Below are positions 3,202-50,831 of a stretch of DNA of 64,000 nucleotides, piece after piece. The position numbers and the translations under genes are program-made. The notes under the pieces are model-generated. The model was given only the letters and a program-made list of their open reading frames with translations, did no database searches and was not told the DNA's origin. Source of the DNA: Cyanobacteria bacterium P01_F01_bin.150 (lineage in GTDB: Bacteria; Cyanobacteriota; Cyanobacteriia; CAKZMO01). The first letter of the stretch is position 1, and each line of letters begins with the position of its first letter. Where the stretch lies: positions 32,001 through 96,000 of the forward strand of contig JBCCYL010000005.1 in assembly GCA_039189765.1 (NCBI GenBank), read 5' to 3'.

Positions 3202-3204
3202 CGC

Positions 3205-12726: not shown

Positions 12727-12743
12727 AAGCGGGAGATCCCTAA

Positions 12744-22111: not shown

Positions 22112-22128
22112 GGCAGGAAATAAAGGTA

Positions 22129-22162
22129 GGTGATGGGTGATGGGTGATGGGTGGTGGGTGGG
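22129..22162. repeat. Heptamer tandem repeat (GGTGATG)n, STRR-like
   Basis: Three perfect copies plus degenerate copies. Confidence 0.75.
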
Positions 22163-22227
22163 CTATTCATTCTGTGGCATTTTCGATCAAAATCGCTCAT
22201 GTATAAACGCTGCTGGTGGGCATTGCC

Positions 22228-22455
22228 TGGGTTGTTCATTTTGTTTGAAGATTCACGAAATAAGTTCATGTAGTTTTTTGTCTTTGCTTTAACTCTCTAT
22301 TGACCCACCCCTAGCCTCTCCCGAGAGGGGAACCGGACGTGTATGGAGATTTTAGCTACGTTCCGGTTCCCCTCCTTGGAGGGGCTAGGGGTGGGTTCCG
22401 ACGCAAAAGCTGTATGAATAGCTTTCTGTTAAAACGCCATAAAATGAACATTCCA
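22228..22455. mobile_element. MITE with terminal inverted repeats and target-site duplication, inserted in a REP-like palindrome
   Basis: TIRs TGGGTTGTTCATTTT / AAAATGAACATTCCA; GGCATTGCC repeated at 22219-22227 and 22456-22464; internal palindrome 22303-22396. Confidence 0.8.
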
Positions 22456-22572
22456 GGCATTGCCCACCGAACCTGAATGAATAAATGGATTCAAGAAGCA
22501 GGCGTAGGGTGTCATTTGCGCCAGTGTAACGTACTATTTTAGTCGCTTATTCTCGTGCCAATTTCTTCCCTC

Positions 22573-32322: not shown

Positions 32323-32823
32323 CTATTCACTTAAACAACCACTGTCAGGCAATGCTCTATTGGCGGCCCATTCATAAACCCTTTCTCCAATATTTAATGT
32401 GCGGCTTAAACTGACATTGGAAACTCTTAAATCTGTGTAGCATACTTCACGCTCAGGTAAATTAAAGGAGTCGATAGTGCTACGAAGAGTAATCGTACCG
32501 TGAGCATTTTGTCGAATTTTACGTTTGAGGGTGGCATCTAATTCAATAGTCAGTTCACAGGCTTGAAATGAGACCGATTCAACCTGATTAATAATCAATT
32601 TTTTACGCTTACTGATGCGATGACTTTCTCCAGAAACTCTTTCGTTAACCTGAGCAAGGATTTCAGCATCTAGACTATTTCCAAGATTTTCGACGATAGA
32701 GCAATCGAGGGATTTTTGGGCTAATGATGTCGATGGTTGAGGATGGGCGATCGCACTCTCTAGACTAACCATAAGCAAACTAGCCGTAGTCAAGGCTGAT
32801 AGAATTTTCTTCATGGGTTTCAT
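32323..32823 (-). CDS. Hypothetical secreted protein
   Basis: Signal peptide MKKILSALTTASLL..AIA; four Cys; co-oriented 70 bp after TpsB. Confidence 0.7.
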   Translation of the reverse strand: MKPMKKILSALTTASLLMVSLESAIAHPQPSTSLAQKSLDCSIVENLGNSLDAEILAQVNERVSGESHRISKRKKLIINQVESVSFQACELTIELDATLKRKIRQNAHGTITLRSTIDSFNLPEREVCYTDLRVSNVSLSRTLNIGERVYEWAANRALPDSGCLSE

Positions 32824-32893: not shown

Positions 32894-34744
32894 CTAACGC
32901 CCATAGCGCAAATTAAAATAAATTCCTGAATCCTGGAGATTGTCTCCTTTATTTTCCCAGTCCACCAAGGGAATTCCCAAATCAACCCGAAGCTTGAGGC
33001 CGTCCTGGCCCAACACCTGATCAAAAATCAGTCCAAACCCAGTACCACTCAGTAGAGTCGTCCCCGTCAACTCATTGGGATTATTGCCTGAATTCCACAC
33101 TGCCCCTACATCCCAAAAGGGCGCAAGTTGAATAATTGGAGCTCCGGTGGAGTTGCGATTAACCGTGATGCGATCTTCTATGGAAAAGCGTAGGCCGTTG
33201 TCTCCCGATCGCGCATTTTGCCGATATCCCCGTGTAGACTGGCCGCCCCCGATAATAAAACGCTGAGCGGGCAATAAACTATCGGGAGTTAACTGTAGCT
33301 CTCCTTGAATCAATAGGAGATGGTCTTGACTAAGTTGCTGTACCCGTTGTGCTTGGCCCAGCCAACTAAAGAAGTGACCATCAGGGATGGGTTCATCGTT
33401 GGTTGTTGCATCAAATAGCCCTGTGCCAAAGTCAAATTGCGATCGCACCGACCACGCGCCCCGAGAATCTCGCCTGATATAGTCTTGCCCAAAGTTGAGG
33501 ATGCTAGTGCGGCTAAAGGCATCTTCATCAGGTCCAATACCGAAAGGAAAGGAGAGATCGCCAATAAAGGTTTGACCAGACTGATATTTAAACCCCGCTG
33601 ACAGTGCTAATTCTTCTCGGGGCGATCGCACCAAGGGTTGTCGATAGGTTATTTCGTATAGCTCTTGCTCGCCTCGAATATTAAGGTCAATAAACTCCGG
33701 GTCAGTAATATTGAAATTATTGGGAGCAGCCCGTAGTTGAACTGCGCCGTTCATCGCATTGACAGGAATACGATACAGCACATTGTAATTTTCTGCTCCA
33801 CTAGTCGTTGATCGAAGATAGGAAGCAGACAACTCATCTCCATTGCCGGTGAGATTGCGATGGCTCAGGGTCAAACTCACCCTTTCTGACCCCACACTAG
33901 GGGGAGAATAGTTATCAGTACTAAATCCATAGCTAAATGGATTAGCCTCTATAACTCGCACAATAAGCTTACTTTTGCCCTGTTCTCCCGTTGGCTGCAA
34001 ACTGGCTTCAACACTGGCGAAGAGGGGATCGGAGCGTAGCAATCGCAGTTGGTTTTCCAGCCTGGTGCTATTAAATGGAATAGTTGTCCCCAACTGGATG
34101 CGATTCCTGATATAGGACTCTCGAACCCTGAATGACCCCCTAGAAGAATCATCGTTAATGGCATTCGCTAAATTTGCAGTCTCGCTACCCTCACCGTCAC
34201 TGATCTCACCGTCACTGATCTCACCATCGCTGCTCGCACCGTCGCTAATCTCATCATCGTTAGCCTCGTCGTTGTTGCGCTCTTCGGTGGATGTTGGCAG
34301 TTCAATGGGGATAATCTCAATCTCAGTAATCTCTCCCTCAAAAATTTTAATCGTCAAAATACCATCTTGACCAATGGTTGCGCTGGCGACAGGTACGGCA
34401 CGAGTCGTGACATAGCCTCGATTGAGATATAGTTGAGTGATTTCATCCGCAACCTGGCGAATCTTTTCAACGGTTAAATCCTGATTTTCAAACGGTGCTA
34501 GAATCTCGGCCCAATCGTCATCATCAAAAACGGTACTGCCAACAACGTTAATCTGCTGAACTCGAACGGATGGTTCAGCGTTTTGTGGATTATTATCAGA
34601 TTCGTCTGCAACTTCAGAAGAAGAGGAAGACGGTAACTGTGCCATAAATTGACCCCACACAGATTGGTTCAAGTCATGGACAGCAAATCCAAGTAGAACA
34701 GTGAGGGCCGGAACAATAGATACACAGCGGAACACGTTACTCAT
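32894..34744 (-). CDS. ShlB/FhaC/HecB family TpsB outer-membrane transporter (ORF open from 34768)
   Basis: POTRA motifs V.GSTVF and ITQLYL.RGYVTTRA; DNYSPPSVGSER; IGGGQSTRGYRQN; LQDSGIYF. Confidence 0.95.
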   Translation of the reverse strand: MSNVFRCVSIVPALTVLLGFAVHDLNQSVWGQFMAQLPSSSSSEVADESDNNPQNAEPSVRVQQINVVGSTVFDDDDWAEILAPFENQDLTVEKIRQVADEITQLYLNRGYVTTRAVPVASATIGQDGILTIKIFEGEITEIEIIPIELPTSTEERNNDEANDDEISDGASSDGEISDGEISDGEGSETANLANAINDDSSRGSFRVRESYIRNRIQLGTTIPFNSTRLENQLRLLRSDPLFASVEASLQPTGEQGKSKLIVRVIEANPFSYGFSTDNYSPPSVGSERVSLTLSHRNLTGNGDELSASYLRSTTSGAENYNVLYRIPVNAMNGAVQLRAAPNNFNITDPEFIDLNIRGEQELYEITYRQPLVRSPREELALSAGFKYQSGQTFIGDLSFPFGIGPDEDAFSRTSILNFGQDYIRRDSRGAWSVRSQFDFGTGLFDATTNDEPIPDGHFFSWLGQAQRVQQLSQDHLLLIQGELQLTPDSLLPAQRFIIGGGQSTRGYRQNARSGDNGLRFSIEDRITVNRNSTGAPIIQLAPFWDVGAVWNSGNNPNELTGTTLLSGTGFGLIFDQVLGQDGLKLRVDLGIPLVDWENKGDNLQDSGIYFNLRYGR

Positions 34745-34789
34745 AATAGTCTGAGGCGAAATTATCAAGGCAAAATTATCAAGGCAAAA

Positions 34790-37700
34790 TTACCAGGGAT
34801 TACCGATCATGGTAAAGGCAGACCAGTAGAAGGGGTGACTGAGATTCGGATCTCCAATGCTTTCCGAAAGCTCAGAGGGGATATCTAGCTCCAGGCCTGG
34901 TAGACTTAGCCTTCCCTCTCCATAGGAGACATCCCCCCGTAACATCGCAATTTGGGTAAGGCGAAGGGCTTCAGCTTTTAGCTCTGCTTGATTAAGTTGG
35001 CGATAAAATTCCGCCATAAGGGCTAAGGTTCCAGCATCATCTACGTACCAAAGGCTGGCCATGGCGGATTTAACTCCGGCTTGAGCTGCCAACCCTGCAA
35101 AGCCCAGCTCAGCTTCCCGATCGCCCACTGCGGTACGACAGGCACTCAGCACCAGCAGCTTAACAGGGGGATCGTTCCAACCCAATTCACGCACTTCGTC
35201 GAGTCCCAGCTTTTCATCCCAGAGTTGGATAAAGGAGTTTTCCACATCCCCCGCTCGGAAATCTCCATGGGTGGAAAGATGAACAATACCATAGGGATTC
35301 GCTTGGCGTTCTTCAATCAGTTTTTCTCGGGTAAAATCCTCATTAAGGAAAGAGTTTCCTTGCCACAAACTATCGGTTAAGACAGAGACTTCAACGGGGG
35401 CAGACTGCAAGTCTGATAGCTTGTCATCGCCAGGAAAGGTTGATGCTCCCATCGCTAAGACTTGAGCATCTTGCAGATCGACCAAACGAGTATCGGTGAG
35501 ACTTAAGCTAGGCATTAAGCCCGTGCTGTATTGTTCTATCAGATATTGCTCCCCATCGTGGAGGGCCGCAAAGGGCAAAGAACGCAGCCCTTCATCGGCA
35601 ATAAAGACCAGGTTTTCCACGGCTTCTGCGTCCAGGTCTGCCTGTAGGGGCGTAATCAACCATTCGTACAGTTGCTGAGCAGCCGGGAGAAAGCTTAAAC
35701 GGCCTCTTCGGACATCGATCTGGTCCTTGATTTTGGCATGGAACGTATCGACGACCGCTAAGACGTTTTCACGGGTAGCTCCAGGGACTCGGTAGCGGAC
35801 GGGTTGTCCATCTGGCGTGACCAAAACAAGTTCTAGTTCATCCCCCAGCCCCTCTTCATCAACGGATACGACAGATTCATTATCGGCATTGGTGGTAATA
35901 TCGACATTGAATTCTACGGGGACAAAGTTGGCATAAATTACGGCGGGGCGAATGCCAGAGATATCGGCGATTTCTCCCAAGGCATCACAGGTATCTACTA
36001 GGCTTTGGCCTCCGACACCCGATGACTGGCCCAGGTATTCTTCAAATTCACGGGTGTACTTTTCATCAATATCGGCAACTCCAGTATCAATGGGCGCACA
36101 TAAGCCTTCTGTTTGGATTGGGGGGATGGGCGGATTGGGGGGCGGCTCAGGGGGGCCAGGGGGTTCAGGAACGGAAATAAGTTGAATATTCGGATTTTCA
36201 GTGTAGGTAAAGGGATATTCCCGAAAGTCTAGACTCGCTTCGCCTGTGGCAATCCCTCCGGCGGTGCCGTTGACCCCAGCATCACCCACAATAAATGGAA
36301 TATCGCTGTCTCCACCATGGCGGATGGTGACTGAATCTCCGGTGCCGTTGGCTCCCCCAGTGGTGGCAATACTGTTGCCGCTGGGATTCCTGGCGGTTTG
36401 GGTACCGGGAATAATGCCTGTGGCCCGGAAGAATCGTTCGGTGGTGATATCCACGGTGCCGCCGCCTGCGGTGCCACGGGCATCAATAAATTCCACTTCA
36501 ATATCATTTTCAGGATCGAGAAATACATCTCCGCCTTGTCCTGCTAAACTTTCGGTGTCGATCGCCCCTGTAGTAATGGAGGTGATGGCCTGAATGGTGA
36601 CATCGCCCCCATCGGTTCCTTCAGTAATGATGTCATTGACGGTTACGATGCCGTTGCTAATTAGGCTAACGGGACCACCTGGACCAGCAACCGAAGATGT
36701 ATTGAGGGTGCTGTTTTCAGCCTGGATATTTTGGTTTTGGCTGGTGAGGGCGATCGCCCCTGCATTAATATCACCACTAACGGTTAAATTACCGTTGGTA
36801 GTGGCAGTAAAGGTTCCACCCACCAAAGACTGCCCAAGGGTTGCAATATCGGCGGTTAAAGTAGCGTTGCCATTATCCCCCGTCGTGTTCAGGCTAATGG
36901 TCCCTGTGGCAGTAGTTTGATCTAAAGCAATATCAGCATCGGGTGCAGCGGTGATAAAAGTGCTATTGCCGCCAACAGTAACGACATCGTTATCAGTGAT
37001 ATTGCCTGCGGTAGCGGTGACCGTTAAATCACCGCCCACAGTGGAAAGGCCAAAGATGAGGTCAGTAGCATTAGTAATTTGGACATCCGCATCGTTTCCT
37101 GTGGTGTTGGTGCTAACCGTTCCAAAAGCATTGAGCTGATCCAGTTGAATACCAGCGTTGGTTTTAGCGGTCGTAAAGGTACTATTGCCCCCTACGGTAA
37201 CGGTATCGCTATCGGTGATACTACCTGTAGTGGCCGTGGCCGTTAAATCACCGCTCACGCTAGAAGGACCAAGGGTGAGGTCGGCGGCATTGGTAATTTG
37301 GCCATTCCCATCCCCTGTAGTATTGATGCTAATCGCTCCATCAGTGTTGAGCTGATCAAGTTGAATATCGGCGTTAGTTTCAGCGGTCGTAAAGGTGCTA
37401 TCGCCCTCGACGGTAACGGTATCGCTATCGGTAATATCGCCAGTGGTGGCAGTGGCGGTTAAATCACCGTCCACGCTAGAAGAACCAAAGGTGATGCCGT
37501 TGGCATTGGTGATTTGGACATCCCCATTGTTCCCTGTAGCGTTAGCGCTAATCGTTCCAGAGACATTGAGCTGATCCAGTTGAATATCAGCGTTGGGTTC
37601 AGTGGTGGTAAAGGTGCTATCGCCCCCTACCGTAACGATATCGCTATCGGTAATACTGCCCGTAGTCGCAGTGGCCGTTAGATCCCCGCCCACAGAAGAA

Positions 37701-40700
37701 GAACCAAAGTTGATGGCATTGACATTGGTGATTTGGACATCCGCGTTATTTCCTGTGGTGTTGGTGCTAATCGTTCCAGAGGCATTGAGCTGATCTAGTT
37801 GAATATCAGCGTTGGTTTCAGTGGTGGTAAAGGTGCTATCGCCCCCTACCGTAACGGTATCGCTATCGGTGATACCGCCTGTGGTAGCAGTGGCGGTTAG
37901 ATCACCTTCCACATTAGAAGCACCAAGGGTGAGGTCATTAGCATTAGTAATTTGAACATCCCCATTATCGCCTGTGGTATTGGTGCTAATGGCTCCGGAA
38001 GTATTGAGCTGGTCAAGTTGAATATCGGCGTTAGTTTCAGCAGTAGTAAAGGTGCCATCGCCCCCCACGGTAAGAGCATCGCTATCGGTAATACTGCCTG
38101 TAGTAGCAGTGGCAGTTAGATCACCTCCCACAGTAGAAGGACCAAAGTTGATGGCATTAGCATTGGTGATTTGAACATCTGCATTGTTCCCTGTGGTGTT
38201 GGTGCTGATGGTCCCAGCAATGTTGAATTGGTCGAGTTGAATATCGGCGTTGGGTTCAGTGGTCGTAAAGGTGCTGTCGCCCCCTACGGTAACGGTATCG
38301 CTATCGGTGATACTGCCTGTAGTAGCAGTGGCAGTTAAATCACCGCCCACTGTGGAAGTGCCAAGGGTAAGGTCGTTAGAATTGGTAATCTGAACATCCC
38401 CATTGTTCCCTGTGGTGTTGGTACTGATGGTCCCAGTAGTATTGAGCTGGTCGAGTTGAATATCGGCATTAGTTTCAGTGGTCGTAAAGGTGCTGTTACC
38501 ACCGACGGTGACAGTGTCGCTATCGGTAATATTGCCTGTGGTGGCAGTGGCGGTTAAATCCCCACCTACAGTGGAAGACCCAAAGGTGAGGTCATTGGCA
38601 TTGGTAATTTGGACATCCGCGTTGTTCCCTGTGGTGTTGGTGCTAATTGTTCCAGAGACATTGAGCTGGGCGAGTTGAATATCGGCGTTAGCTTCAGTGG
38701 TTGTAAAGGTGCTATCGCCTCCCACGGTAATGGGTCCTGTATCGGTAATATTGCCAGTGGTTGTGGTAATGCCAACATCACCAGACACGTTGGCTTCTTC
38801 CAGCTCCAATCCAATCGTATTTTCAAGCTGAAGATCTCCAATAACGGCTTCAACGGCAACGGTTCCGGTAGTGGTGATCAAAGGGTTATCGGCTGTGCCG
38901 ACCGAACCTGAGCTGTTGATCGTGACTAAGCCAGTGCTACCCACATCTATATCGGTGTCATTGGTGCCACTGGTGACACCACCTGTATTAAGGGTCACGG
39001 AGCTACCTTCCCCCAGGGTCAGCGTGTTGTCAAAACTAACGGTATCCCCTTGGAGCGTAAGGTCAGATGTGGTGGCACTTAAATCGATATTGTCACTAAC
39101 AACGATGGGTTCAGAACCGCCAGCACGCCCAATAGTTAAGCGATTAAAGCCATCTAGCTGGTCAATTTCTTCAGCAGTAAGATTAAGGGCATTGGGGTCA
39201 TCAATTCCAGTATCTGCCTCCCCAAAAGCAATACCTTGAGTGGGGCTAAAAGGCTGGAGAGCTAGATCACTTCCGTTTGAGGTGACAGCATCACCCAAGT
39301 CAATTTCATCGGCAGATAGGGACAAATTATAGATATCCGTGGTCAGGGGATTGTTGAGGATGAGGCTCTCTTCTGCACTAATGCTGGTGTCTGCACCTAG
39401 GGTAAGGGGATTATCAAAGGTTTGCTCCTCCGAGAAGATAAATTCCCCTGACAGTTGGACTGGACCGCCGCTCTCGATCACGAATTCATCTAACGTGGCA
39501 ATAGTACCGATGCCATTAAGGGTGATAAGACTGTCACCGGAATCTAGCGTCAGGGTGTAGGTATTCGGTTCGCCCAACGGAGCATTAATTTCATCTCCAA
39601 AAGTGATTACGCCGCCATTACCATTACTACGAACCGTAATATCGTTGGTCACTGTAACTGGGCCACTAATGGTGATGGCGGCATTGGTGGTTTCAATATC
39701 ACCATTTAGGGTATTAGCGGGGCCAGTTAGCTCAACCACTCCCCCGTCAATCGTAGGATCGAGACCAGCAATATTGTCTGGATTATCGAAATTGGCGGTG
39801 GCATTGACATCGCCAACCGTAACAGTATCGTTGGCCTCAATACTAACCTGACCACTTCTAACAATGGGATCGGGTTCTGGCTCATCTGGTGCTAGAACCG
39901 AAGGGGTAATAGTGGCAGAAGAATCAACGATGTCATTAACAGTGATGGGGCCTTCGGTGGTCAGGGTGATATCCCCACCAAACGCCTGACGATTACTAGA
40001 AGCGGATGTATCAATGCTTTGTACCTCAATAGAACCCGCCGCTTCTATGGTGACAGCCCCACTTTGGAGACCTGCAATACCAGCAACACTTCTCAAGTCT
40101 GGATCAGGGGCTTGATCTGGTGGTGCTCCCCCTGGTAAGCCGCCATCCCCTGCATTATCAATAAAGTTGCTACTGTTAGTTTGAATAGTTCCTGTTTGAA
40201 CATTTCCTGAGTCAGAAATTATTCTGACATTAATTTCACCGGGAGTATTGGTACCATTACCGCCATTGCCACCCACTCCACCAGAGCCACCATTGCCAAC
40301 TTCTACACCAAAATCGCTACCATTACCGCCATTACCGCCATTACCACCCACACCACCAAATGTAAAAATATTTCCAGTTGTGATTCCACGCGAGCTATCT
40401 AAGTCAATAACTCCGCCATTTCCACCAACCCCACCATTTCCACCAGCACCACCATCTCCGCCATTACCCAAACCAGCATTAGCAACTCCACCATCTCCAC
40501 CAATTCCACCATCTCCACCAGGGCCACCATCTCCACCATCTGAAATAAGATTATCGACAATCAAATTTCCATCAGATATCAGTTCCAACACACCACCAGG
40601 GCCACCAGGACCACCGGGGCCACCAGGGCTACCAGGACCACCAGGGCCACCAGCAAGAAATTCATCACCAGGGCCACCAGGGCCACCAGGGCCACCAGGG

Positions 40701-42844
40701 CCACCAGGGCCACCAGGGCCACCAGACGTATTTATCTCCCCACCAATTTCAATATCGCCTGTTGCAGGTGAAAAACGAACATTCCCTCCCGATCCTCCCG
40801 GTCCACCAGGACCACCAACTTCACCAGGGCCACCAACTCCACGAGGACCACCAACTTCACCAGGGCCACCAACTCCACCAGGACCACCAGGACCACCAGA
40901 CATATCTATCTCACCATCAATTTCGATAGCGCCTGATGTAGCTGCAAACCAAACATTTCCACCCTGTCCACCCGGTGCGCCTGGTGCGCCCAGTGCGCCC
41001 AGTGCGCCTAGCTCACCGATTCCGCCAGACCCAACAGTTCCTCCATTCGCGACCACGCGACCATTAATCAATATCGAAGCACCTGTGACTTCAATATTAA
41101 TATCGCCGCCATTACCACCAACACCACCATTCCCGTCATTCCCACCCTGAAAGCCATCACCGCCATCACCGCCATCACCGCCAAATGCAAAAATATCTCC
41201 AGTTGTAATGTTGGATAAACTGTTTAAGTTAATGCCTCCACCAGCACCACCCTTCCCCCCAGCACCTCCGGGAGACTCAAATACAAAAACCTCACTGCCA
41301 TTACCACCATTACCACCAGCACCACCAGAGGCATTAAGCCTGCTATCAATTTCAATTACACCTACCGTCGTAGTAAAATCAACAATGCCACCAGCACCAC
41401 CAGCACCACCAGCACCACCCCCATTACCACCACTACCCCCATTACCACCATTACCACCAGTAACATTCACACTGCTATTCATCAATATCGAAGCACCCAC
41501 GACTTCAATATTGCCACCAGCACCACCAGCACTACCATTACCAGCAATTCCACCAGTTCCACCAGTTCCACCAGTTCCGCCAGTAGCATTCACACTGCCA
41601 TTCATCGATATTGAAGTACCTACGACTTCAATATTGCCACCAGCACCACCAGCACCACCAGCACCACCAGCACCGAGAAGGAAGCCAATGCTACCAGTTC
41701 CACCAGTTCCACCAGTAGCATTTACACTGCCATTCATCAATATCGAAGTACCTGTGACTTGAATATCACCCCCATCACCCCCATCATCGCCAGCCTCACC
41801 AGCAGCGACATTGCCACCAGGATTACCAGAAACGTCAAGATTCTCCCCAACTACAACTATTCCAGGACTGTTTTCCAGTGTGACCAATTGAATCTCATTA
41901 CCGTTTACTTCCAAGGTCAAGTCTTCGTCGGGAATAACACCTGTGGTCAGTAAATCAGGCAGAGTAGCAGGAGTAATAGCGCCCAGCGGATTTGGCAGCT
42001 GATCACCCGCAGCCTCAATGGGAAACACCTCCAGAGACAGGGGGTTCCCCGGCATACTCAGACGAACAAATCTCTCCCCAGGTACTGCCATTAGAATAAT
42101 GTTTCCTCCTGGAGCTGTCACAGGTCCCGTACTGACCACTGTCCCACCCATCAGCGTGATGGACTGTTCCGGTCTAACTGTCAAGCCTACGTCCTCTTCA
42201 CTCTCCGGATCACCCACCAAATTCATTGCACTATTAATGACAATCCCCGGTTCTGACAACGAAAATGCAAAGCCATCAGGGTCTCCGGTCAGATCTCCAT
42301 AGGAGGGAACCTCTCCCACTACGCTAAACCAGTTATCCTCACCAAACCGAATCGCATCTGCTGTTGTTGCCGTAAAACTGCCAGGGATATCCAAACTTGC
42401 ATTGGCCCCAAACACTATCCCCGCAGGGTTCATCAAATAAAGATTAGCATCGCTATTAACACCGCTTTGGGTTACGCGAATAATCCCGTTAATAACTGAT
42501 TTTTGAATCCTTTCCCCGTTCCCGACGACTCGACTCAAAATATTCTGAATATTAGGATCAGCCAAAAAATTCGCAATCTCCCCCTCGTTCAGCCCAAATC
42601 GTTCAAAGCTATGGAACAAGTTCAGGTTCTCTCTCTCCCCTGATAGCTGTCCTCCTGTGATATTGAACTGATTTCCATCTTCTGTCACCGTTGTGCGATC
42701 GTCAGCCGATGTAATCTGTGCCTGAGCCACAGGCATTTCAACCAATATGCCGGAAACACAAAGGCATAGCAGTAGCCCCACCTGCTTGACTCGTCGCAAA
42801 GGGGGATTAGGGTAGGAAACACAATCCTGCATTGGGCGGCTCAT
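34790..42844 (-). CDS. TpsA exoprotein with Gly-rich and 73-aa repeats fused to a C-terminal CHAT protease
   Basis: [34 protein letters not shown] tracts; [33 protein letters not shown]. Confidence 0.95.
36870..38770 (-). repeat. About 9 tandem 219-bp (73-aa) coding repeats
   Basis: ADIQLDQL landmark recurs every 219 bp (one unit 216 bp). Confidence 0.9.
40240..41800 (-). repeat. Gly-rich low-complexity coding tracts (PGRS-like GGxGGx and GPGGPG)
   Basis: 9-bp units ccagggcca / ccagcacca / ccattacca on the + strand. Confidence 0.9.
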
Positions 42845-42949
42845 GGCTTAAACTCCTAAAATAGATGAACACTCTGTCGATTAATAGATATCAATAAATT
42901 AGGGCTATTTGGGGCATCGTTCCCCTGAACTTCCAAATAGGTTTTGGTT

Positions 42950-43978
42950 TTATGGTGAGGGTTCCAACTGAGATGGCTCTGATTGCGAGAGGGAACAGCA
43001 ATTGGCGATCGCCCCCACCTCCACATCACTTAACTCCACAGCCCCCAACAATTCCGTCCAGGTATCCCGTAACAACTCATTACCTGGCTCCTGCCGCAGT
43101 CCATCGCCTACCAGCGTCAACGCCTCAAACCAAATCCCATTGTTTACAAAAGCCACCGCTTGGTCATAGGGACCCGCAGCCCCCTGCAAAGCAGTCTCCA
43201 ACGTGTCACTCCGTTCAACACGAGTCACACTAAACTCCAGAATCGAACTTAAATCTGGCGCATCTGGGCCACACTGAGCTTCCAAAATAACCGTGTAGCT
43301 CTGGCCGGTAACCAACCCCGGCCCCGAAGGTGGCAGCGTAATCCCAATGGCCCCCGGCACATCGCTGGTTAACTCCACAGGTGTTCGATCATACAAATCA
43401 TCCCCACCATCCGCCCATAGGACAAACTGAAGCGCATGGACAGCATTCATCTCAAATGGAACATGAAACCACAGGGTTGGATATTCCTCCGTTGTTTTCG
43501 CCTGCCCTCGAAACTCTGGCACAAGCGCAACCAGCGCATCCTCGCCAAACGCTTCCCCCGGTGTGCCGTCACACGGGCCTCTGCTCCCCGCATTAGCTCT
43601 ACGTTTAGGACGACCACCTCCACCATCCGGGATATCAAATTTATTACCGATCAGCCCCTGTTGAGCCGCCCTTACAGGCATCCAGACTCCCACGGCGGAC
43701 GTGCCAACCAACAGTCCAGCCAACCCTAAAACCTGACAGGCTCTAATCACAACCTGTGACTGTTTGCCTCTGGTTCCCAGCCGGAGACTGGGAACCACTC
43801 CTGGAGACTCTGGCTCCAGGCTGATCCAGAGCCAGAGTCTCTGGATGGCATTCCCAGCAGGACGCTGGGAACGATAAACAGGCTGTGACTGCTTATTAAA
43901 ATTAGACTTATTAAAATTAGACTTATTAAAATCACGCTTATTAAAATCGCTCAAAAACTGACGGGGCATATGATTCAA
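42950..43978 (-). CDS. DUF928 domain protein (exported)
   Basis: G.P..R..AGSRG.C; LVALVP; T....PTLWF.VP; V.RV; NGIWFEAL; W..LL..V.L; AIANCC; hydrophobic signal region. Confidence 0.9.
   Translation of the reverse strand: MNHMPRQFLSDFNKRDFNKSNFNKSNFNKQSQPVYRSQRPAGNAIQRLWLWISLEPESPGVVPSLRLGTRGKQSQVVIRACQVLGLAGLLVGTSAVGVWMPVRAAQQGLIGNKFDIPDGGGGRPKRRANAGSRGPCDGTPGEAFGEDALVALVPEFRGQAKTTEEYPTLWFHVPFEMNAVHALQFVLWADGGDDLYDRTPVELTSDVPGAIGITLPPSGPGLVTGQSYTVILEAQCGPDAPDLSSILEFSVTRVERSDTLETALQGAAGPYDQAVAFVNNGIWFEALTLVGDGLRQEPGNELLRDTWTELLGAVELSDVEVGAIANCCSLSQSEPSQLEPSP
43767..43874. repeat. 108-bp palindromic REP/MITE-like element, copy 2 (in frame within DUF928 ORF)
   Basis: Same three-hairpin structure and length as 12793-12900. 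Confidence 0.9.
43892..43948. repeat. 15-bp tandem repeat x4 (encodes FNKSN/FNKRD)
   Basis: CTTATTAAAAT at 43892, 43907, 43922, 43937. Confidence 0.85.
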
Positions 43979-44108
43979 TCCTTTTTACTTCAATACACTT
44001 AATAACGGCAATATTTAAACTTAGAGACCACTTTTAAACAAGATGTTTAAACACAAAACGCTCAAACACTTGATTATCTGAAACCGCCATAGCGTAGACT
44101 ACTGGCCC

Positions 44109-46544
44109 TTACAAACGGCCAGAAGACCGCTGTTTTAACCGAGACGGAATATCGTCCGGCAAGGCTTTCAGAGAAGCGATCGCCCCAGACGAAACCAGCA
44201 AACCAATGCTCGGGGGAAGCAAGGAAACCCATACTCCGCTCAACACTAAAGCCACATAACAAAAAACATACAACACAACGACACTAATTCCATCTATCAG
44301 CAAAATAAGCTGCCATCGAGACAACTGCCATGCCGTTGCTGCACCTAGTAGAGACCACCCCATCAGCCAACATACCTCCCCCCATCGCGGCCACCACCAA
44401 ATTAAAGGACGCCCATCCAATACTGCACTAATCAGTTGGCTGATCATATGGGCCTGAAGTTCGACACCAGGGATCTCATGCAAATCACCACGGTGGGGAA
44501 TATCGTGAAAGTCATTGTATGATTCGGCGACTGTGCCAATCAAAACAATATTGCCATTGACGAGCTCGGGATTCTTTCGAAATGCCTCTCCCTCCAATGC
44601 CTCTGCCAACGTTAAACGCGGAGCAATACTCTCCGTTCTTCGGTAGTTCAACATGGTTTGATAGCCATCATCATCCGCTGTCTGATAGGCCCCATAATGA
44701 TTCCTCAGAGTGGGTAGTTTGACCCCTCCTAAATAAAAAGAATCGTTCTTTTCATTCAAGTTCACTCGAAAATTCCCTGGGTCAAGCCCACTCAAATAAT
44801 ACGCAGCCATTAAGAATGCAAAAGAATTAGTCGCTTGACACCTGGAGGATGTATTTGCCCCCATTTGAAATAACTGACGTCGGATCACATTATCCAAATC
44901 AAGCACAATATCGCTAAATCCCACCCGTAGCCGAATTTGCTCACCAGAAATTTCAGGGGGAGGAGCTATATCTGATTCTGATTCTAAAGACGTTGATTCA
45001 CCGACCCCGCAAATCGTCACAAACTGATCATTTGCGTTGAGATAATTGGATAAAGTCGGATGGCGCTCTGGCGAAGCGGTCTCCAATCTATAGATATCCA
45101 CACCCACCACAGCTGGTTCATAGGGCGCTAATGTTTCCAGTAACTGATTGAGAGCATCATTTGAAAGGGAGCCACGAAACGTTAAGCGCTCTTCTTGGTC
45201 CTGTACATCAGCCTCCGTCACTGTAACCAGCAAAAGCCGAGGATCAACCCCCTCTGTTTGGGGACGACGTTGCATCAATTGATCAAATACCGTCAATTCG
45301 CTTTGTTCCAACACTCCTAAATGCTGTACCACCAACGTCAAGGATGCCACCACGATTCCCGTCATCATCATCATCAAACCACTGACTGCTAGCCGTGACG
45401 GTTGAGAAGGCAGAGGGTCTGTACTTGACGGCTTTCCCAACAGCATGTCCCAGGTCAAGGGTTCCACCGCCGGATTCTGACAAATTACCGGTAACCACGA
45501 CGCACAAGGAAACTGATCCTCCAGCCCTTGCAACCTTGACCGTGCCTCCCGCACCGCCAAATAAAATGACTCCCCCCGAGCAAATAACGTTAGAAACGAC
45601 TTCAAAAACTCATGGGCCACCTGATCTGGCACCGGAGCACGCATCACAATCAATTGGGGAATATGTAAATCCGCCAAATCCTGTGCCAATCCTAAACCAT
45701 CACAGGAATTAAAAATCGCCAGCTTTAGCCCCCGAATCATTGCCGCCTTTAGGGCATTCTTTAACTGAGGAATCGTCAATCCATCCGCTGGGTTAATCTC
45801 GATCCGGCCCGTCGTCCGCTCCTGCTGGCTTTCGCTATGCCCCGCAAAAAACAACACATCCCATCCCTGGTCATCCCACAGCGCCTTATCCACAGCCTTG
45901 CGGCCAGGCTCCACCAGAAAGTGAATCTCAGCCCTGGGGAACTGCTCTAACAATCGCCGATCTTCCTCCAGATTAATTCCTTGGCTATTGCCCAAAATCG
46001 CTAAAATCCGCATCCGCTTCTTGGGTCGCAGTAGCGCCGTTGGCACCCGTTCAAAATCCTGTGTGCCCAAAGCCACCTCTGTGCGGGGAAAATCATCTAA
46101 AAAATGCCACAATTGCCACGGAAACTGCCGTAGAGTTTCATCATCCACCTCAATTATCATCTGCACGGTATGGTCCGGTTGCAGCTTATTTCGCAACCGC
46201 CGATCAATCCGGCTAAACAATTCAGAATCCAACCAAGCATTAATATCTCGTTCCAGTTGAGCACATAGGGTATTGAATTCACCCGCCGACACCGTTGTAA
46301 TCTCGTCTTCTGGATCAATCTCAAGCCCCATCCGGGTCCGTCGCCAGTGTAAACGGGACGCCAATGCATCGTAATACGATCGCCACTGCTGAAATAAAGA
46401 GGCCAGTGCTGGATTAGGCGGTAGCTCCCCAATTGCCTGAATAGGCTTTGCCTGATGCAGTTCCCAGACCTGAGCCGTAATGGACGGAAACCCTTGGTGC
46501 AAACTGCCTCGGCCTAAATTCAAAACAACACGCTGACTCATCAC
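44109..46544 (-). CDS. CHAT (HetF-like) protease domain + CHASE2 sensor, membrane protein
   Basis: N-terminal DVLFFAGHS and LAIFNSCDGLGLA, WLPVICQNP; TM; CHASE2 DPRLLLVTV.E.D, VGVDIYR, D.DNVIRR, PGVELQAHMISQL; three C-terminal TM. Confidence 0.92.
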   Translation of the reverse strand: MMSQRVVLNLGRGSLHQGFPSITAQVWELHQAKPIQAIGELPPNPALASLFQQWRSYYDALASRLHWRRTRMGLEIDPEDEITTVSAGEFNTLCAQLERDINAWLDSELFSRIDRRLRNKLQPDHTVQMIIEVDDETLRQFPWQLWHFLDDFPRTEVALGTQDFERVPTALLRPKKRMRILAILGNSQGINLEEDRRLLEQFPRAEIHFLVEPGRKAVDKALWDDQGWDVLFFAGHSESQQERTTGRIEINPADGLTIPQLKNALKAAMIRGLKLAIFNSCDGLGLAQDLADLHIPQLIVMRAPVPDQVAHEFLKSFLTLFARGESFYLAVREARSRLQGLEDQFPCASWLPVICQNPAVEPLTWDMLLGKPSSTDPLPSQPSRLAVSGLMMMMTGIVVASLTLVVQHLGVLEQSELTVFDQLMQRRPQTEGVDPRLLLVTVTEADVQDQEERLTFRGSLSNDALNQLLETLAPYEPAVVGVDIYRLETASPERHPTLSNYLNANDQFVTICGVGESTSLESESDIAPPPEISGEQIRLRVGFSDIVLDLDNVIRRQLFQMGANTSSRCQATNSFAFLMAAYYLSGLDPGNFRVNLNEKNDSFYLGGVKLPTLRNHYGAYQTADDDGYQTMLNYRRTESIAPRLTLAEALEGEAFRKNPELVNGNIVLIGTVAESYNDFHDIPHRGDLHEIPGVELQAHMISQLISAVLDGRPLIWWWPRWGEVCWLMGWSLLGAATAWQLSRWQLILLIDGISVVVLYVFCYVALVLSGVWVSLLPPSIGLLVSSGAIASLKALPDDIPSRLKQRSSGRL

Positions 46545-46547
46545 ACC

Positions 46548-47750
46548 TTAAACCACAAAATCTGCTATGAAACTGGCTTCGGCTAAGGTGACAGAGAGGC
46601 TAAATTGACTGCCCGAGGTCCCCCTAAAGGTTCTAAGCTGGATAAAATACGCATCACTCACATCCGCCTGGGCTGACTGTAACGGTGATGCGTCGTCATC
46701 TAGCAACGTCACTGCAATTCCTTCCGGTAAATACTCATCCGGCGGCATCGGGTATAGCTGAACCCGCACCGCCACCTTGTTATCGTCCGTAGGCGTCAAC
46801 TCCAAACAGAGCCTCAACTGTTTTGCCTCTCCGGAGGCTATATCCAAACTGACCTGCTTACACCGTTGAACCAAATCAGGATTTTGGGCCGATCCATCGC
46901 GCTGGGCCACCGCCCCTTCATACTGTCCCGCTGCGGCCAAATCAGTAAGCGATCGCCACCCCGCCTCTGCCACATCCTGGAACCACTGACTTAAATTCAC
47001 CAATGGTCGAACCGTTGCACTGGACTGTTCCGCTGCTGGATTCTGGCGCAATTGAGAGAGGCGATCGCGCCATTGCGGATTCTCCAACAACGCCCCCCAC
47101 AACGAAAATGGAATGGCCAAACGGGGAAACGCAAGATTAGGATTGCTCAGCCGCTGCAACAAATTCTGTGCTTGGATATCTGGAAGAAGGGGCAGTGGAG
47201 CGATCGCAGCCTGGGTCACAGCGTCCCCACAGGTTTCTAGCGTCACCTCAAAACTATTTAAGCTCGTATCCAAATCGGCTTGGTCCAAGGTATAGAAGCG
47301 GGCAACCGGATCATATATCCCCTCTTGCTTCACCTGGGCATGGGTTGTGAACCCCCATACTCGCACCCACGACTCATCGGGGTTCACCTGAACCGCTAAA
47401 TAATAATCCACCAGCCAAGACGGAATATCCACCCACTCTTGGGGAACTTCTAACCCATCCATCGCCTCAGACGGCAGCAAAACCAACCGTTTATCCCCCA
47501 TCTCCAACGCCGTCCCACTGGTCAATGCCCAAATGCTGTTTGGCTGCGACAATATCGTAGTAATGCTTGTATCAGATCCTTCCTGTAACCAGGGCAGAAC
47601 CGTATTAAGACATAGCTCATTTAAATAGATTAGCAGGGACAGTGGTAACGCCGCTGTTGCCAGTCCTTGGCTACGACTCCACGCCTGCTCTTTTATAGAA
47701 TTACTAATCTCCAGCCACCATTCCTGTGGCTCCGCCATCATATAGTCCAT
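46548..47750 (-). CDS. DUF1822 family protein
   Basis: YLNELCL...LPWL, RLVLLPSE, VPQEWVDIPSW..DYYLAVQV, VWGFTTH, VNLSQWF....EAGW, YLPEG...LLD. Confidence 0.92.
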   Translation of the reverse strand: MDYMMAEPQEWWLEISNSIKEQAWSRSQGLATAALPLSLLIYLNELCLNTVLPWLQEGSDTSITTILSQPNSIWALTSGTALEMGDKRLVLLPSEAMDGLEVPQEWVDIPSWLVDYYLAVQVNPDESWVRVWGFTTHAQVKQEGIYDPVARFYTLDQADLDTSLNSFEVTLETCGDAVTQAAIAPLPLLPDIQAQNLLQRLSNPNLAFPRLAIPFSLWGALLENPQWRDRLSQLRQNPAAEQSSATVRPLVNLSQWFQDVAEAGWRSLTDLAAAGQYEGAVAQRDGSAQNPDLVQRCKQVSLDIASGEAKQLRLCLELTPTDDNKVAVRVQLYPMPPDEYLPEGIAVTLLDDDASPLQSAQADVSDAYFIQLRTFRGTSGSQFSLSVTLAEASFIADFVV

Positions 47751-47786
47751 TGTCTGTAGCCTTTATCCATAGTGGGAAATTTATCG

Positions 47787-48986
47787 TTAATCCGCAGAAT
47801 CTATTGCCCCATAGTGAAATCTGAGCCAATCTTCCAATACGGAGTCCATATCTTTCACTAGGTTGGACTCAACAGCAATATGCAGGGCCTCCTCCGCCCA
47901 AATCACTAATTCTTTCAACAGTTTTTTCCGCACCCTCGACAATTGGCGAGAGACTTTGTACTGAGGAATGTCTAGCTGCTGCGCCATGTCCTTCTGCTTC
48001 AGATTCTGACGGTAGCACAGGTCCAATAGGGTTTGCTCTGACTCTGCTAGCTGCTCTAACAACGACGTTAATTGCCCCATTAACTGTGATGTGCGCGATC
48101 GCCATTCATCCATCTCTTCCTGGGCAACAATCTCAGACAGGAGCGATTCATCCTCTGTCCCCACCAAATTATCTAGCCATTCCCCGGACTCTTGATTGGG
48201 CCGACTAGTATTCAAAGACATAATGGGCGGATAGAGATATCTACGGGCCTCTTCTGCACAGGTTTTCATCCATTGTCTAATCGTATCTGGGGTAGCAACA
48301 GTGCTAGACGGGTCGAGCTGGTTTAGGCGTTCCGTATTGTATAGGTGGGCGATCGCCTCCCACTGTTTCTGATCCGGCTCCGGCAATTTCTTATTGCCCA
48401 CTTGTGCCGTTACGTAAAGAGCCTGAAAGCAACTCCATGCCAATTGATATTCATCAATTGTTTGAGGGGATTCCCCCGCAGTCTCTAAAACATCTTTGAC
48501 CCGCTTTCGAGTCAGCTTTCGCAACAAGGCCCAATCCGTACACAAATCAGCCTGTTGGTGACGACGCAGGTGATCTCGAATGCGAGTAAAAAAGGCAAGT
48601 TGCGCAAATCCTTTGAGCCTAGCCCCCTTATCCATCTGAAAGCTCTTAAGAATCTCCGGTGCCTCAGCAATACCCAACTGAAAATAATCGGAGAACCCAT
48701 ATTGAGTATTCCTTACATGGGAGGAAATTTTTTGGGCCGCATAGAAACAAGGCTCTTGCAAATAGGCAAATAAGTGTTCCTTTGCCCGTTCAAGTTTTTT
48801 CTCATTGAATAATTGCAACCAGTACAAACCCCAAACATGCTCGGAATCTGAGGCCTTCTTTATTGCCGATAGGCGATTAGACATGCTCTTCTGTAGCCGA
48901 GGATCTGATAACCATCGGCCAAAGCGATCGGCCTCCAATTGGATAAAAGTAGAAAAGAGTTCAACTAGCTCCTGGCGATTCCGCAC
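47787..48986 (-). CDS. Divergent sigma-70 family RNA polymerase sigma factor
   Basis: R..L.E.FSTF, HLFAYLQE.C, SLN, region-4-like L.Y.Q.L.Q..MA.QL.I.QY.VSR.L. Confidence 0.85.
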   Translation of the reverse strand: MRNRQELVELFSTFIQLEADRFGRWLSDPRLQKSMSNRLSAIKKASDSEHVWGLYWLQLFNEKKLERAKEHLFAYLQEPCFYAAQKISSHVRNTQYGFSDYFQLGIAEAPEILKSFQMDKGARLKGFAQLAFFTRIRDHLRRHQQADLCTDWALLRKLTRKRVKDVLETAGESPQTIDEYQLAWSCFQALYVTAQVGNKKLPEPDQKQWEAIAHLYNTERLNQLDPSSTVATPDTIRQWMKTCAEEARRYLYPPIMSLNTSRPNQESGEWLDNLVGTEDESLLSEIVAQEEMDEWRSRTSQLMGQLTSLLEQLAESEQTLLDLCYRQNLKQKDMAQQLDIPQYKVSRQLSRVRKKLLKELVIWAEEALHIAVESNLVKDMDSVLEDWLRFHYGAIDSAD

Positions 48987-49138: not shown

Positions 49139-49738
49139 CTAAACCATAATAAAACTCTTGAGAATCCCTAAAATTTGGCTAGGATTACTGATGAAATACT
49201 CAGTTATATCTAGCTCCACGCTTGTGCCTACTAATCTCATAAATTTCCAGTTTGTTCCAGTTGTTACACTACCATAAATAACTGGAATATTATTATTACT
49301 TTTTTGATTAAATAACTGCGCAGCATACATTTCTGCAATGCACTGCCCTAGTTCAGACTGGATATTATCATTTTTAGCTTCCACAACAACAGCAACAGGA
49401 GCCTTAATGATTAACTGTGACGCAGATTGACTAATTAAGAAGTCACAAAATCCTACCAAATCTTTTTCCGGATCTACATTAAATTCTCGACCAGAGAACA
49501 AACTGATTTGCGAATTAGACAGTTTTTTAAGTTCAATTAAGATAGGCGTCAGGATCATCTCCGATCGCGCTTTTTCTGTGGCAATTTCTAGAGCCAGTGG
49601 CAGATTATAATCAAGAATTTGCTGTAATAATGGGCTAATTTCTTCTGCTTCAGCTTGAGAGAATATATTTTGGCTTTCTTTTATCGTTAAACCGAGTTTG
49701 GCCTCAATATCTTCTAGCTTAAATTTACTGTAAGACAT
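49139..49738 (-). CDS. Cyanobacterial PD-(D/E)xK-like (HsdR N-terminal-like) protein, paralogue 1
   Basis: EKARSE.I..P.L; G.CDFL; VEAK; GQC.AEM.AAQ.FN; YG.VTTG..W.F. Confidence 0.8.
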   Translation of the reverse strand: MSYSKFKLEDIEAKLGLTIKESQNIFSQAEAEEISPLLQQILDYNLPLALEIATEKARSEMILTPILIELKKLSNSQISLFSGREFNVDPEKDLVGFCDFLISQSASQLIIKAPVAVVVEAKNDNIQSELGQCIAEMYAAQLFNQKSNNNIPVIYGSVTTGTNWKFMRLVGTSVELDITEYFISNPSQILGILKSFIMV

Positions 49739-49861: not shown

Positions 49862-50264
49862 ATGGTTAGCGTATTATCATCAAACGTGGATACTCGGCCT
49901 GCCGAACAGCGAGTATTAGGTTGAGGTGGATAGTACCCATACAGATATTAATAAGAATGCCCTTTATGCGACAATGGGAGTGCATGAATTTTGGCGTTAT
50001 GATGGTCGAATTTTGAGAATTTATATTGTGCAAGACGGCAACTATCAGGAAGCTGAAACAAGCCTGACGTTTCCAGATATTGCTAAAAACTTGCTTTATC
50101 AGTTTTTACAAGACTGTAATGAGCAAGGGGAGACCGTTTCTAAGCGTCAATTGCGCGATCGCCTTAATCAATCACTGATACTATCCGCCTATCCAATATC
50201 AAGTGTGAGTCTATGGCGATCGCATTATGCACCCTCTTTATTTCTTTGGAGAACGCACCATTAG
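49862..50264 (+). pseudogene. Uma2-family endonuclease with internal deletion/frameshift
   Basis: ATG 49862 after GGCAGGAG gives MVSVLSSNVDTRPAEQRVLG*; the next frame resumes at VEVDSTHTDINKNALYATMGVHEFWRYDG; middle of the protein is missing. Confidence 0.8.
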
Positions 50265-50831
50265 CCAGCTAAATAGTTCTCCAACCGTTAGGTGAACATT
50301 GGTTGCGAACGGAGGGACGGGTAACGTATCATCAGGCTGGTCAAAAACCTTCACTTGCTCCGGTGGCAAATAGACCAACACAGTTTGCTCATCGGGGTCT
50401 ATAAGCCAGCCCATTTGAGTCCCATTTTGGAGGCAATAGAGAATGTTTTTAGTGACTCGTGTTTGGCTTTGGTCAGGCGACAAAATCTCAATCGTCCAAT
50501 CTGGGTAAGTGGAGATATTGTCAGCAATTGCCCCTGTGTCATCGCAAGGAATTCTAGACCAGGTAAAGACGCAAACATCTGGAATGATTGAGCGCCCACC
50601 AAAGGTACACCGTAGTTCTGAAAAGGCCCAGGCAATTTGTTCTGGTTGCAATGCGCCATTTAGGACTGTTGGCAGTCGTGTCTGTAGGACGCTGTGCTTT
50701 CCTTTGGGCATGGGCTTTTGGAGGATAGTTCCGTTGATATATTCACTGGCAGGCTGGGTTTCTGGCAGTTGCAAAAATTCTTCTAGGGTCAGCGGTTTAG
50801 ACAGTGCTTGTACCATTTCAATCACCTGCAA
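50238..50831 (-). CDS. Uma2 family endonuclease
   Basis: LTLEEFLQLPET.PASEYI.G, ELRCTFGGRSIIPD, PDWTIEILSPDQ, GWLIDP. Confidence 0.93.
   Translation of the reverse strand: MQVIEMVQALSKPLTLEEFLQLPETQPASEYINGTILQKPMPKGKHSVLQTRLPTVLNGALQPEQIAWAFSELRCTFGGRSIIPDVCVFTWSRIPCDDTGAIADNISTYPDWTIEILSPDQSQTRVTKNILYCLQNGTQMGWLIDPDEQTVLVYLPPEQVKVFDQPDDTLPVPPFATNVHLTVGELFSWLMVRSPKK

Follow-up and report, generated by a model that had tools for sequence, protein, structure and literature searches.

The 64,000-nucleotide (nt) stretch of DNA analyzed here, referred to throughout as the window, comes from Cyanobacteria bacterium P01_F01_bin.150 (GCA_039189765.1, contig JBCCYL010000005.1, positions 32,001–96,000 of the forward strand) and contains, at window positions 32894–48986, a block of six co-oriented genes on the minus strand. 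According to the list of open reading frames (ORFs) and the Pfam matches, these genes encode in order a sigma-70-family factor of 399 amino acids (aa; 47787–48986; Sigma70_r4 and r4_2); a DUF1822 protein of 400 aa (46548–47750; DUF1822, 1.2e-75); a membrane receptor of 811 aa that combines CHAT and CHASE2 (44109–46544); an exported DUF928 protein of 342 aa as the ORF is listed (42950–43978; DUF928, 2.6e-31); a TpsA exoprotein of 2684 aa with a C-terminal CHAT domain (34790–42844; TPS, DUF5649, and CHAT); and a TpsB outer-membrane transporter of 624 aa (32894–34768; POTRA_2 plus ShlB, of the ShlB/Omp85 barrel type). The intergenic gaps, in the same order, amount to 36, 3, 130, 105, and 21 nt, the last becoming 45 nt if the TpsB start is placed at the first ATG instead. 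The orientation, the domain content, the gaps, and the catalytic dyads of both CHAT domains—as checked in the ORF list, by Pfam, and in alignments—are all as an earlier reading of the DNA letters had stated, which reading (the original prediction) had gone on to interpret the six genes as a cascade of caspase-like proteases signaling across the envelope to the sigma factor.

The receptor consists of a CHAT domain at residues 113–342 (nt 45519–46208; 2.6e-12) and a CHASE2 domain at residues 402–735 (nt 44340–45341; 2.9e-54), with no further Pfam domain. The CHAT has the motifs FFAGHS and FNSCD, whose H236 and C281 are invariant in all 26 aligned homologues, and is preceded by a conserved N-terminal region (residues 1–112; nt 46209–46544) in which G13, G18, G39, L41, P42, Y58, and other residues do not vary across the homologues; this conservation is consistent with the constant EACC2 domain that stands ahead of the caspase fold in related systems. 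The hydropathy scan found no signal peptide; CHASE2 is preceded by a hydrophobic helix (residues 387–405) and followed by a hydrophobic block (about 753–789), beyond which only some 20 residues remain. With CHASE2 thus flanked by transmembrane helices and the signal peptide absent, we read the N-terminal CHAT as cytoplasmic. The output of the receptor is accordingly an N-terminal protease, not a C-terminal kinase or cyclase, in agreement with the original prediction that a CHAT with an intact dyad is its sole non-sensor module. The form is widespread: 6,478 proteins at E ≤ 1e-3 among 8,000 candidates resemble the receptor, the best non-self match being 48–49% identical, and both CHASE2 and CHAT occur in 120 of the 120 receptor-like proteins among the matches listed.

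Upstream of the receptor, the sigma factor matches the NCBIfam model TIGR02937 with 74 bits against a cut-off of 42.9 over residues 68–360, and about 150 residues separate its regions 2 and 4. A profile built from 40 homologues gave as its best match in the PDB the factor SigF (1l0o_C, E 1.6e-7, over regions 2 and 4), and also matched FliA; judged by its sequence, then, the protein belongs to the sigma-70 family, carries a long insert, and stands nearer to SigF and FliA than to the classic extracytoplasmic-function (ECF) factors, whose roughly 200 aa hold regions 2 and 4 alone. Neither this protein nor DUF1822 contains a membrane segment in the hydropathy scan.

The AlphaFold2 model of DUF1822 (predicted local distance difference test, pLDDT, of 89.4) runs from an alpha+beta domain through a helical middle part to a beta-sandwich at the C-terminus. 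Against the folds of the PDB that model had no counterpart, the template-modeling (TM) score being 0.18 at most; the sequence profile of the family found nothing in the PDB under E 0.07, and homology to Csx30 was not detectable. The TRADD-like_N domain (PF20694) was detected at E ≤ 0.01 in none of the 64 DUF1822 proteins of the related loci described below, so that the locus belongs to the TRADD-N-independent version mentioned by Kaur et al.; a sister cluster of DUF1822 proteins in the ESM Atlas does carry that domain. Residue 284 is a lysine or an arginine in 64 of 64 homologues and lies in the internal block of lowest confidence in the model (mean pLDDT 61). We regard DUF1822 as a candidate sigma-holding adaptor and a candidate substrate of the cytoplasmic CHAT, with K/R284 as the candidate cut site. 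As a separate observation, residues 6–175 resemble small hypothetical phage proteins, including DUF5843, in the ESM Atlas structures (TM score by target 0.67–0.76).

On the other side of the receptor, the DUF928 protein opens with a signal peptide, which is followed by a disordered tail (pLDDT about 50); the folded part, a beta-sandwich with four helices, has as its best PDB match the C-terminal domain of MtxA (4z29, E 6.9e-6). The consensus of the tail reads P-x-x-G-x-P-x-x-R-R-x-G-G-G-S-R-G-x-C...L-T-A-L-V-P, and the arginine of the G-S-R-G-x-C segment, ahead of the cysteine, is invariant in 45 of 45 sequences, its codon in the window being 43580–43582. The family comprises 7,310 representative clusters at E ≤ 1e-3; the tail motif was present in 122 of the 150 top representatives, in 108 of those 122 with a hydrophobic stretch upstream. 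That arginine would suit the P1 preference of a CHAT protease, which preference we take over from Anabaena HetF, a CHAT protease that cuts PatU3 after Arg117 (PMC9457339).

The first 75 or so codons of the listed DUF928 ORF contain two repeats: a 15-bp tandem repeat (43892–43947; 3.7 copies), which encodes FNKSN repeats at the ORF start and is probably an untranslated leader, and a structured 108-nt repeat with three hairpins (43767–43874). Translation may therefore really begin at 43969 (ATG) or at 43750 (GTG), either of which would widen the 130-nt gap. A second copy of the 108-nt repeat, at 12793–12900, lies inside a TPR-CHAT gene, in its 5' part; the two copies are 88.9% identical over 108 nt (blastn), stand in opposite orientation relative to their genes, and fold with z-scores of −6.8 and −6.2. 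The element matched no Rfam family—nor did any other part of the window—and may be a regulatory structure common to the two genes or else a miniature mobile element.

TpsA begins with a signal-like segment (residues 19–40) and a two-partner secretion (TPS) domain at residues 46–264 (nt 42053–42709; PF05860, 1.4e-35; TIGR01901, 1.3e-14), continues through nine DUF5649 repeats and Gly-rich repeats, and ends in a CHAT domain at residues 2387–2682 (nt 34799–35686; Pfam, 5.5e-69), whose H2522, H2526, and C2569 are identical in all 74 aligned exported CHAT domains (the window protein, 33 proteins of related loci, and 40 library proteins). At the DNA level, a 219-bp unit in 8.3 copies (36955–38761) overlaps the DUF5649 region, and the GC skew of −0.40 at 40–42 kb is probably due to Gly-rich 9-bp repeats on the minus strand at 40250–41800. 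TpsB, starting 21 nt downstream, has a signal peptide, a POTRA_2 domain (8.8e-17), and a ShlB domain (1.6e-29), and the pairing of the two genes predicts that TpsA is secreted through it.

To place the block in context, a scan of species-representative genomes yielded at least 597 related loci, of which the best 80 were retained together with as much as 10 kb of flanking sequence; the six-frame ORFs of those 80 loci were searched with the window proteins by phmmer and then with iterated profiles, the remaining ORFs being clustered and the cluster representatives named by Pfam. Every record whose title names a group is cyanobacterial, the range extending from Nostocales to Chamaesiphon, Pleurocapsa, and Crocosphaera; two are titled simply 'uncultured bacterium'. 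Among the loci with enough flank, DUF1822 lay directly upstream of the receptor in 64 of 74; a sigma factor of any kind was present in 50 of 67; and DUF928 was found anywhere in 55 of 68 and adjoining the receptor downstream in 42 of 68. In the 36 loci having at least 9 kb on each side (the full-flank subset), DUF1822 occurred in 35, DUF928 in 29, the sigma factor in 28, and an exported CHAT protein in 25, and the four were found together in 20. Of 40 exported CHAT genes, 16 start no more than 500 nt from the core block, and such genes number 6.55 per 100 kb close to the core as against 2.28 farther out. Going by these synteny counts, the gene arrangement is far beyond chance.

In the other loci the exported CHAT is a stand-alone TPR-CHAT protein of about 810–1140 aa, often encoded directly behind a separate TPS gene. 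Those proteins have an N-terminal Sec-type signal or anchor and no TPS domain, for which reason they should end up in the periplasm; the fusion of TPS and CHAT within one protein, and the adjoining TpsB, are accordingly unusual in this context, the fusion being absent from the 80 loci and TpsB rare in the full-flank subset. The middle region of TpsA, together with orf166 and orf199, had no homologue in those loci, and we therefore do not count these as conserved parts.

A second sample was centered on DUF928: a tblastn search of plasmids gave 26 records, and in the 11 annotated regions inspected a CHASE2 protein was named nearby in eight, CHAT in eight, TPS in five, DUF1822 in three, and ShlB in one. 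The cluster is carried by plasmid alpha of Nostoc PCC 7120 and by Picosynechococcus PCC 7003, where it forms a compact same-strand operon; both strains are genetically tractable. In some CHASE2–DUF928 regions—L083 (Nostoc punctiforme pNPUN01), L087 (Planktothrix p1), L089, and L090—the neighbor on the cytoplasmic side is a TIR, an AAA-like, or a WD40/CHAT/trypco2 gene in place of DUF1822 and the sigma factor. From these changing neighbors we conclude that the recurrent core consists of CHASE2, DUF928, and the exported CHAT, and that the cytoplasmic side is exchangeable. In L087 and L077, moreover, a ShlB-type gene lies directly 5' of a TPR-CHAT gene.

Within the cytoplasmic partners two subtypes could be recognized. 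A long DUF1822 accompanies the long, SigF-like sigma factor in 35 of 38 loci, and a short DUF1822 a small, ECF-like one in 15 of 25, while crossed pairs were never seen among the loci analyzed. The small protein, of about 226 aa, matched a sigma70-ECF superfamily model in 6 of 14 cases (best E 8.8e-7, under the curated cut-off), had a weak PDB match to SigK as a profile, and weakly matched the sigma model of type III-E systems in just 2 of 14. Since hhalign aligned only a helix-turn-helix stretch of the long and the small factors (probability 1.7%), we treated these as separate subfamilies. The genes for sigma and DUF1822 are separated by a median of 25.5 nt, and in 37 of 40 loci by no more than 60 nt. 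The distances of the two proteins correlate with r = 0.91, which, like the pairing of subtypes, bears indirectly on a putative binding of sigma by DUF1822. Several genomes have more than one CHAT-CHASE2 locus (L019/L057, L003/L036, L037/L040, L041/L063, and L056/L073), often one per DUF1822/sigma subtype.

The receptor, with one half on each side of the membrane and both halves sharing the history of a single gene, also allowed us to ask with which half each partner had diverged, for which purpose we used partial Mantel tests that relate the distances of a partner to those of one half with the other half controlled (2,000 label permutations). DUF1822 followed the cytoplasmic half (0.68, a value reached in 0 of 2000 permutations) and not the CHASE2 half (0.055), as did the sigma factor (0.47, 0 of 2000, versus 0.003); the exported CHAT showed the reverse, with −0.01 for the cytoplasmic and 0.50 for the CHASE2 half (0 of 2000); and DUF928 was related to both (0.35 and 0.48, respectively). 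For DUF1822, sigma, and DUF928 the pattern persisted within the subtypes that could be tested—for sigma the long-DUF1822 subtype only. The exported CHAT gave −0.11 and 0.48 for the cytoplasmic and CHASE2 halves in the long-DUF1822 subtype, and 0.31 and 0.39, hence both halves, in the short one. A side-specific coupling of the partners to the two halves of the receptor is, on this evidence of sequence divergence, moderately supported.

We therefore consider the cluster to be real and conserved, and propose—tentatively, with a confidence that stops a little short of even—that the six genes make up a single conserved trans-envelope signaling system in which the CHASE2 receptor joins two modules: a periplasmic one formed by the exported CHAT, DUF928, and CHASE2, the CHAT being here the end of a TpsA whose shaft would thread out through TpsB; and a cytoplasmic one formed by the receptor's N-terminal region and CHAT, DUF1822, and the sigma factor. 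In such a cascade some surface or envelope event would activate the exported CHAT, which protease, probably retained in the periplasm, would cut DUF928 behind the invariant arginine of its tail; the altered DUF928 would then shift the state of CHASE2, and that change would turn on the cytoplasmic CHAT. The latter in turn would cut DUF1822, possibly at K/R284, and perhaps cut itself as well, so that the sigma factor would be released and drive transcription. Each of these steps taken singly we hold with less confidence than the scheme as a whole.

The cascade that had been put forward for the locus is supported in part, with the synteny, the two dyads, the pairing of subtypes, the co-divergence, and the arginine in the DUF928 tail on its side; what calls for revision is the surface-exposed CHAT, the close linkage to TpsB, and the sensing of contact. 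A CHAT on the cell surface could not reach a periplasmic DUF928, and the periplasm is the more plausible place for it, since the stand-alone homologues have a Sec signal or an anchor and the prodomain of FhaB, a protein of similar construction, is described as periplasmic (PMC4542190). The idea that the TpsA-borne CHAT senses contact likewise found no support.

Several observations weigh against the proposed scheme. The 80 loci were the top scorers among at least 597, hence no random sample, and in 17 of the 67 with flank no sigma factor was detected. Conservation of synteny, which the original prediction had itself named as a test, holds for five of the six components and fails for TpsB, close by in only 2 of the 36 full-flank loci; a TPS-domain protein is present in 14 of those 36, and TPS and CHAT in one ORF were found in none of the 80 loci. 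DUF1822, furthermore, shows no likeness to known anti-sigma domains in Pfam, NCBIfam, the PDB sequences, or the fold search, the sole lead in that direction being a weak match of residues 196–400 to a zf-HC2 cluster of the ESM Atlas (TM score 0.28/0.40). As to the co-divergence, the upstream genes adjoin the 5' half of the receptor gene and most of the downstream genes its 3' half, so that linkage together with recombination inside that gene could be partly behind the pattern; where the exported CHAT gene is located upstream (n = 16) its product tracks both halves, with 0.32 and 0.40; and the Mantel permutations ignore shared ancestry (phylogenetic non-independence) and cover the top 80 loci only. 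Nor was a shared promoter motif found upstream of the sigma, DUF928, and TpsA genes: the longest stretch common to the three intergenic regions of the window is 8 nt; the scan for promoter and terminator consensus sequences gave no more sites than did shuffled sequences; and the k-mer counts in 40 sigma upstream regions yielded only AT-rich words, along with a TGCATA—absent from the window—in one subset that, in our reading, consists mostly of loci with the longer sigma factors.

The scarcity of TpsB bears on the possibility that there are two separate units, namely a sensor composed of sigma, DUF1822, CHAT-CHASE2, and DUF928, and beside it an unrelated pair of TpsA::CHAT and TpsB, an adhesin or exoprotein whose CHAT processes its own TpsA. 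Such pairs do exist independently: the window itself contains two divergent pairs of TPS and TPR-CHAT genes (739–7833, minus strand; 8206–15827, plus strand) with neither CHASE2 nor DUF928 adjoining—counting against the single system as well—whose TPR-CHAT products have an N-terminal hydrophobic segment and CHAT domains 24% and 34% identical to that of TpsA. Fusions of TPS and CHAT number in the thousands outside this context (2,047 proteins at E ≤ 1e-3, with both domains in 116 of the 120 listed), and in Bordetella the maturation of FhaB is likewise the work of dedicated proteases. The exported CHAT as such, however, recurs in the full-flank loci and in 8 of the 11 plasmid DUF928 loci, its genes are concentrated within a short distance of the core, and its sequence diverges along with that of CHASE2; we deem the separation into two units unlikely.

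If, alternatively, DUF928 were not cut at all, the protein might be a standing partner of the periplasmic module, either as a co-receptor alongside CHASE2 or by serving the exported CHAT as inhibitor, chaperone, or adaptor; CHASE2 would then respond to a small molecule or to envelope damage. That DUF928 co-diverges with both halves of the receptor would fit such a role; its beta-sandwich and helical hairpins, with their likeness to the MtxA domain, have the appearance of a binding module; and Kaur et al. describe CHASE2 as a small-molecule receptor domain (PMC8195603). The most conserved feature of DUF928 is, nonetheless, an arginine in a disordered tail and not a folded surface, and the commonest third neighbor is an exported protease of a family that prefers arginine, so that this explanation appears to us rather improbable. 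Least of all would we credit—indeed, we find it quite improbable—a conflict or cell-death device in which an outside trigger such as a phage, a predator, or contact with kin causes the cytoplasmic CHAT to kill or self-destruct, with sigma as an accessory: the TIR, AAA-like, WD40/CHAT, and trypco2 neighbors of other CHASE2–DUF928 pairs, the classing of caspase proteins among conflict systems by Kaur et al. (PMC8195603), and the injection-system and nuclease-toxin genes of the window point that way, whereas the frequent sigma factor, of a type that follows the DUF1822 type, the many genomes with several copies, as would suit signaling paralogues, and the PADLOC search—no defense-system model for sigma, DUF1822, the receptor, DUF928, or TpsB, and merely a weak BovA match on the TpsA CHAT (E 1e-6)—speak against it.

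We know of no natural ligand of CHASE2, and the protease-ready tail of DUF928 together with an exported protease would provide a concrete candidate; CHAT-CHASE2 receptors and DUF928 proteins are both very abundant (6,478 receptor matches and 7,310 DUF928 clusters). The more general idea that CHASE2 senses a protein and not a small molecule—cut DUF928 switching the receptor, and through it a caspase-like, a TIR, or some other death-fold effector in the cytoplasm—we put forward as a speculation to which we assign a small chance of being right. In insects an extracellular protease generates the protein ligand Spaetzle for Toll, a receptor with cytoplasmic signaling of the death-fold/TIR type; the system of the window would be the counterpart of that sequence by analogy only, with no homology involved. 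Such a logic of protease, ligand, and receptor would span the whole envelope wherever a TpsA filament anchored in TpsB carries the protease.

Other genes in the window deserve mention. Genes resembling those of contractile injection systems (Tail_P2_I and Baseplate_J) were found at 20909–24999 and 54824–59935, along with a 1703-aa protein having an extracellular contractile-injection-system (eCIS) core and a GHH nuclease toxin. Downstream of TpsB, and 70 nt past that gene, a 166-aa ORF with a signal peptide (32323–32823, minus strand) matched no family and had no homologue in the 80 loci; farther on, the gene at 27307–31830 (minus strand) encodes a 1507-aa protein with an S8 subtilase domain, FG-GAP, and RTX repeats. 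The related loci keep only the RTX repeats of that protein and not the subtilase, so that the apparent 'S8' matches there were discarded as RTX repeats. Upstream of the sigma gene stand, both on the minus strand, a PD-(D/E)xK protein (49139–49738; PADLOC 'cas-associated', 3.9e-51) and a Uma2-family endonuclease (50238–50831), Uma2 genes recurring in four related loci.

The cluster has been partly anticipated; its tie to DUF928, the exported CHAT, and two-partner secretion is discussed in none of the papers that our literature search found. The original prediction knew of no functional description of it; the cytoplasmic triad had, in fact, already been described computationally by Kaur, Iyer, Burroughs, and Aravind in 2021 (PMC8195603), who report a neighborhood of caspase, DUF1822, and ECF sigma and propose that a stimulus activates the caspase and thereby elicits a sigma response. 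Their EACC2-caspase systems share with the window a constant N-terminus, a caspase fold, and a variable sensor, of which CHASE2 is one example, together with DUF1822 and sigma; the DUF1822 of the window and its homologues, in contrast, lack TRADD-like_N, the sigma factor is SigF/FliA-like and not a classic ECF, and the activation proposed by those authors is autoproteolytic, with no periplasmic protease, whereas we propose a step by the exported CHAT. Their text does not mention DUF928, TPS, TpsB, 'two-partner', or 'FhaB', and DUF928 is absent from all of the supplement files searched (12 of the 13); in three rows of the supplement, however, 'TM+beta_rich+TPRs' and 'TPRs+CASPASE' genes come, uncommented, after the CHASE2 form. 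Among the relevant papers that our literature search found, EACC2 is treated by Kaur et al. alone, and the adjacency of CHASE2 and DUF928 in Nostoc punctiforme is noted in one published paper; the other papers that name CHASE2 along with caspases are, to judge by their titles and the openings of their abstracts, metacaspase surveys or unrelated work. Experiments on DUF1822, on DUF928, or on the CHAT-CHASE2 form of receptor did not turn up in the search, nor did any text tying DUF928, the exported CHAT, and TPS to that receptor, or any discussion of the CHAT domain with CHASE2, with two-partner secretion, or with cyanobacterial hemagglutinin.

Three further systems resemble parts of the cluster. 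In the type III-E Craspase, CASP-sigma is held back by Csx30, which the TPR-CHAT protease Csx29 cleaves (PMC10028731); there, as here, the gene for a CHAT protease is accompanied by those for a sigma factor and for a protein of unknown fold, and proteolysis there lifts the inhibition of sigma. What triggers Craspase, however, is the target RNA that Cas7-11 binds in the cytoplasm, whereas the window encodes a membrane receptor with an extracytoplasmic domain. HetF is likewise a cyanobacterial, membrane-anchored CHAT protease that cuts a specific regulator after an arginine, but consists of a cytoplasmic CHAT, a transmembrane segment, and periplasmic TPRs, acts in the control of division and heterocysts, and has, in the account available, neither CHASE2 nor sigma (PMC9457339). 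The FhaB/FhaC pair of Bordetella recalls the TpsA with its large C-terminal region and its TpsB partner, and information is said to pass in both directions over the outer membrane along FhaB; the C-terminus of FhaB, in contrast, is a degraded prodomain and not a protease, with no link to CHASE2, DUF928, or sigma in the portion of that work consulted (PMC4542190).

If the proposed scheme is correct, caspase-like proteases would relay signals on both sides of the cell membrane, and the route from the surface to sigma would differ from the known anti-sigma pathways. In cell-surface signaling of the Fec type, an extracytoplasmic event leads through proteolysis to the release of an alternative sigma factor. 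The DegS–RseA–sigmaE pathway is a further instance of anti-sigma proteolysis across the envelope (cited in PMC10028731). Those pathways employ serine proteases and metalloproteases acting on a single-pass anti-sigma factor, whereas the system proposed here would rely on a pair of clan-CD cysteine proteases, one on each side of the membrane, with DUF1822 as a soluble partner and a CHASE2 receptor to join the two sides.

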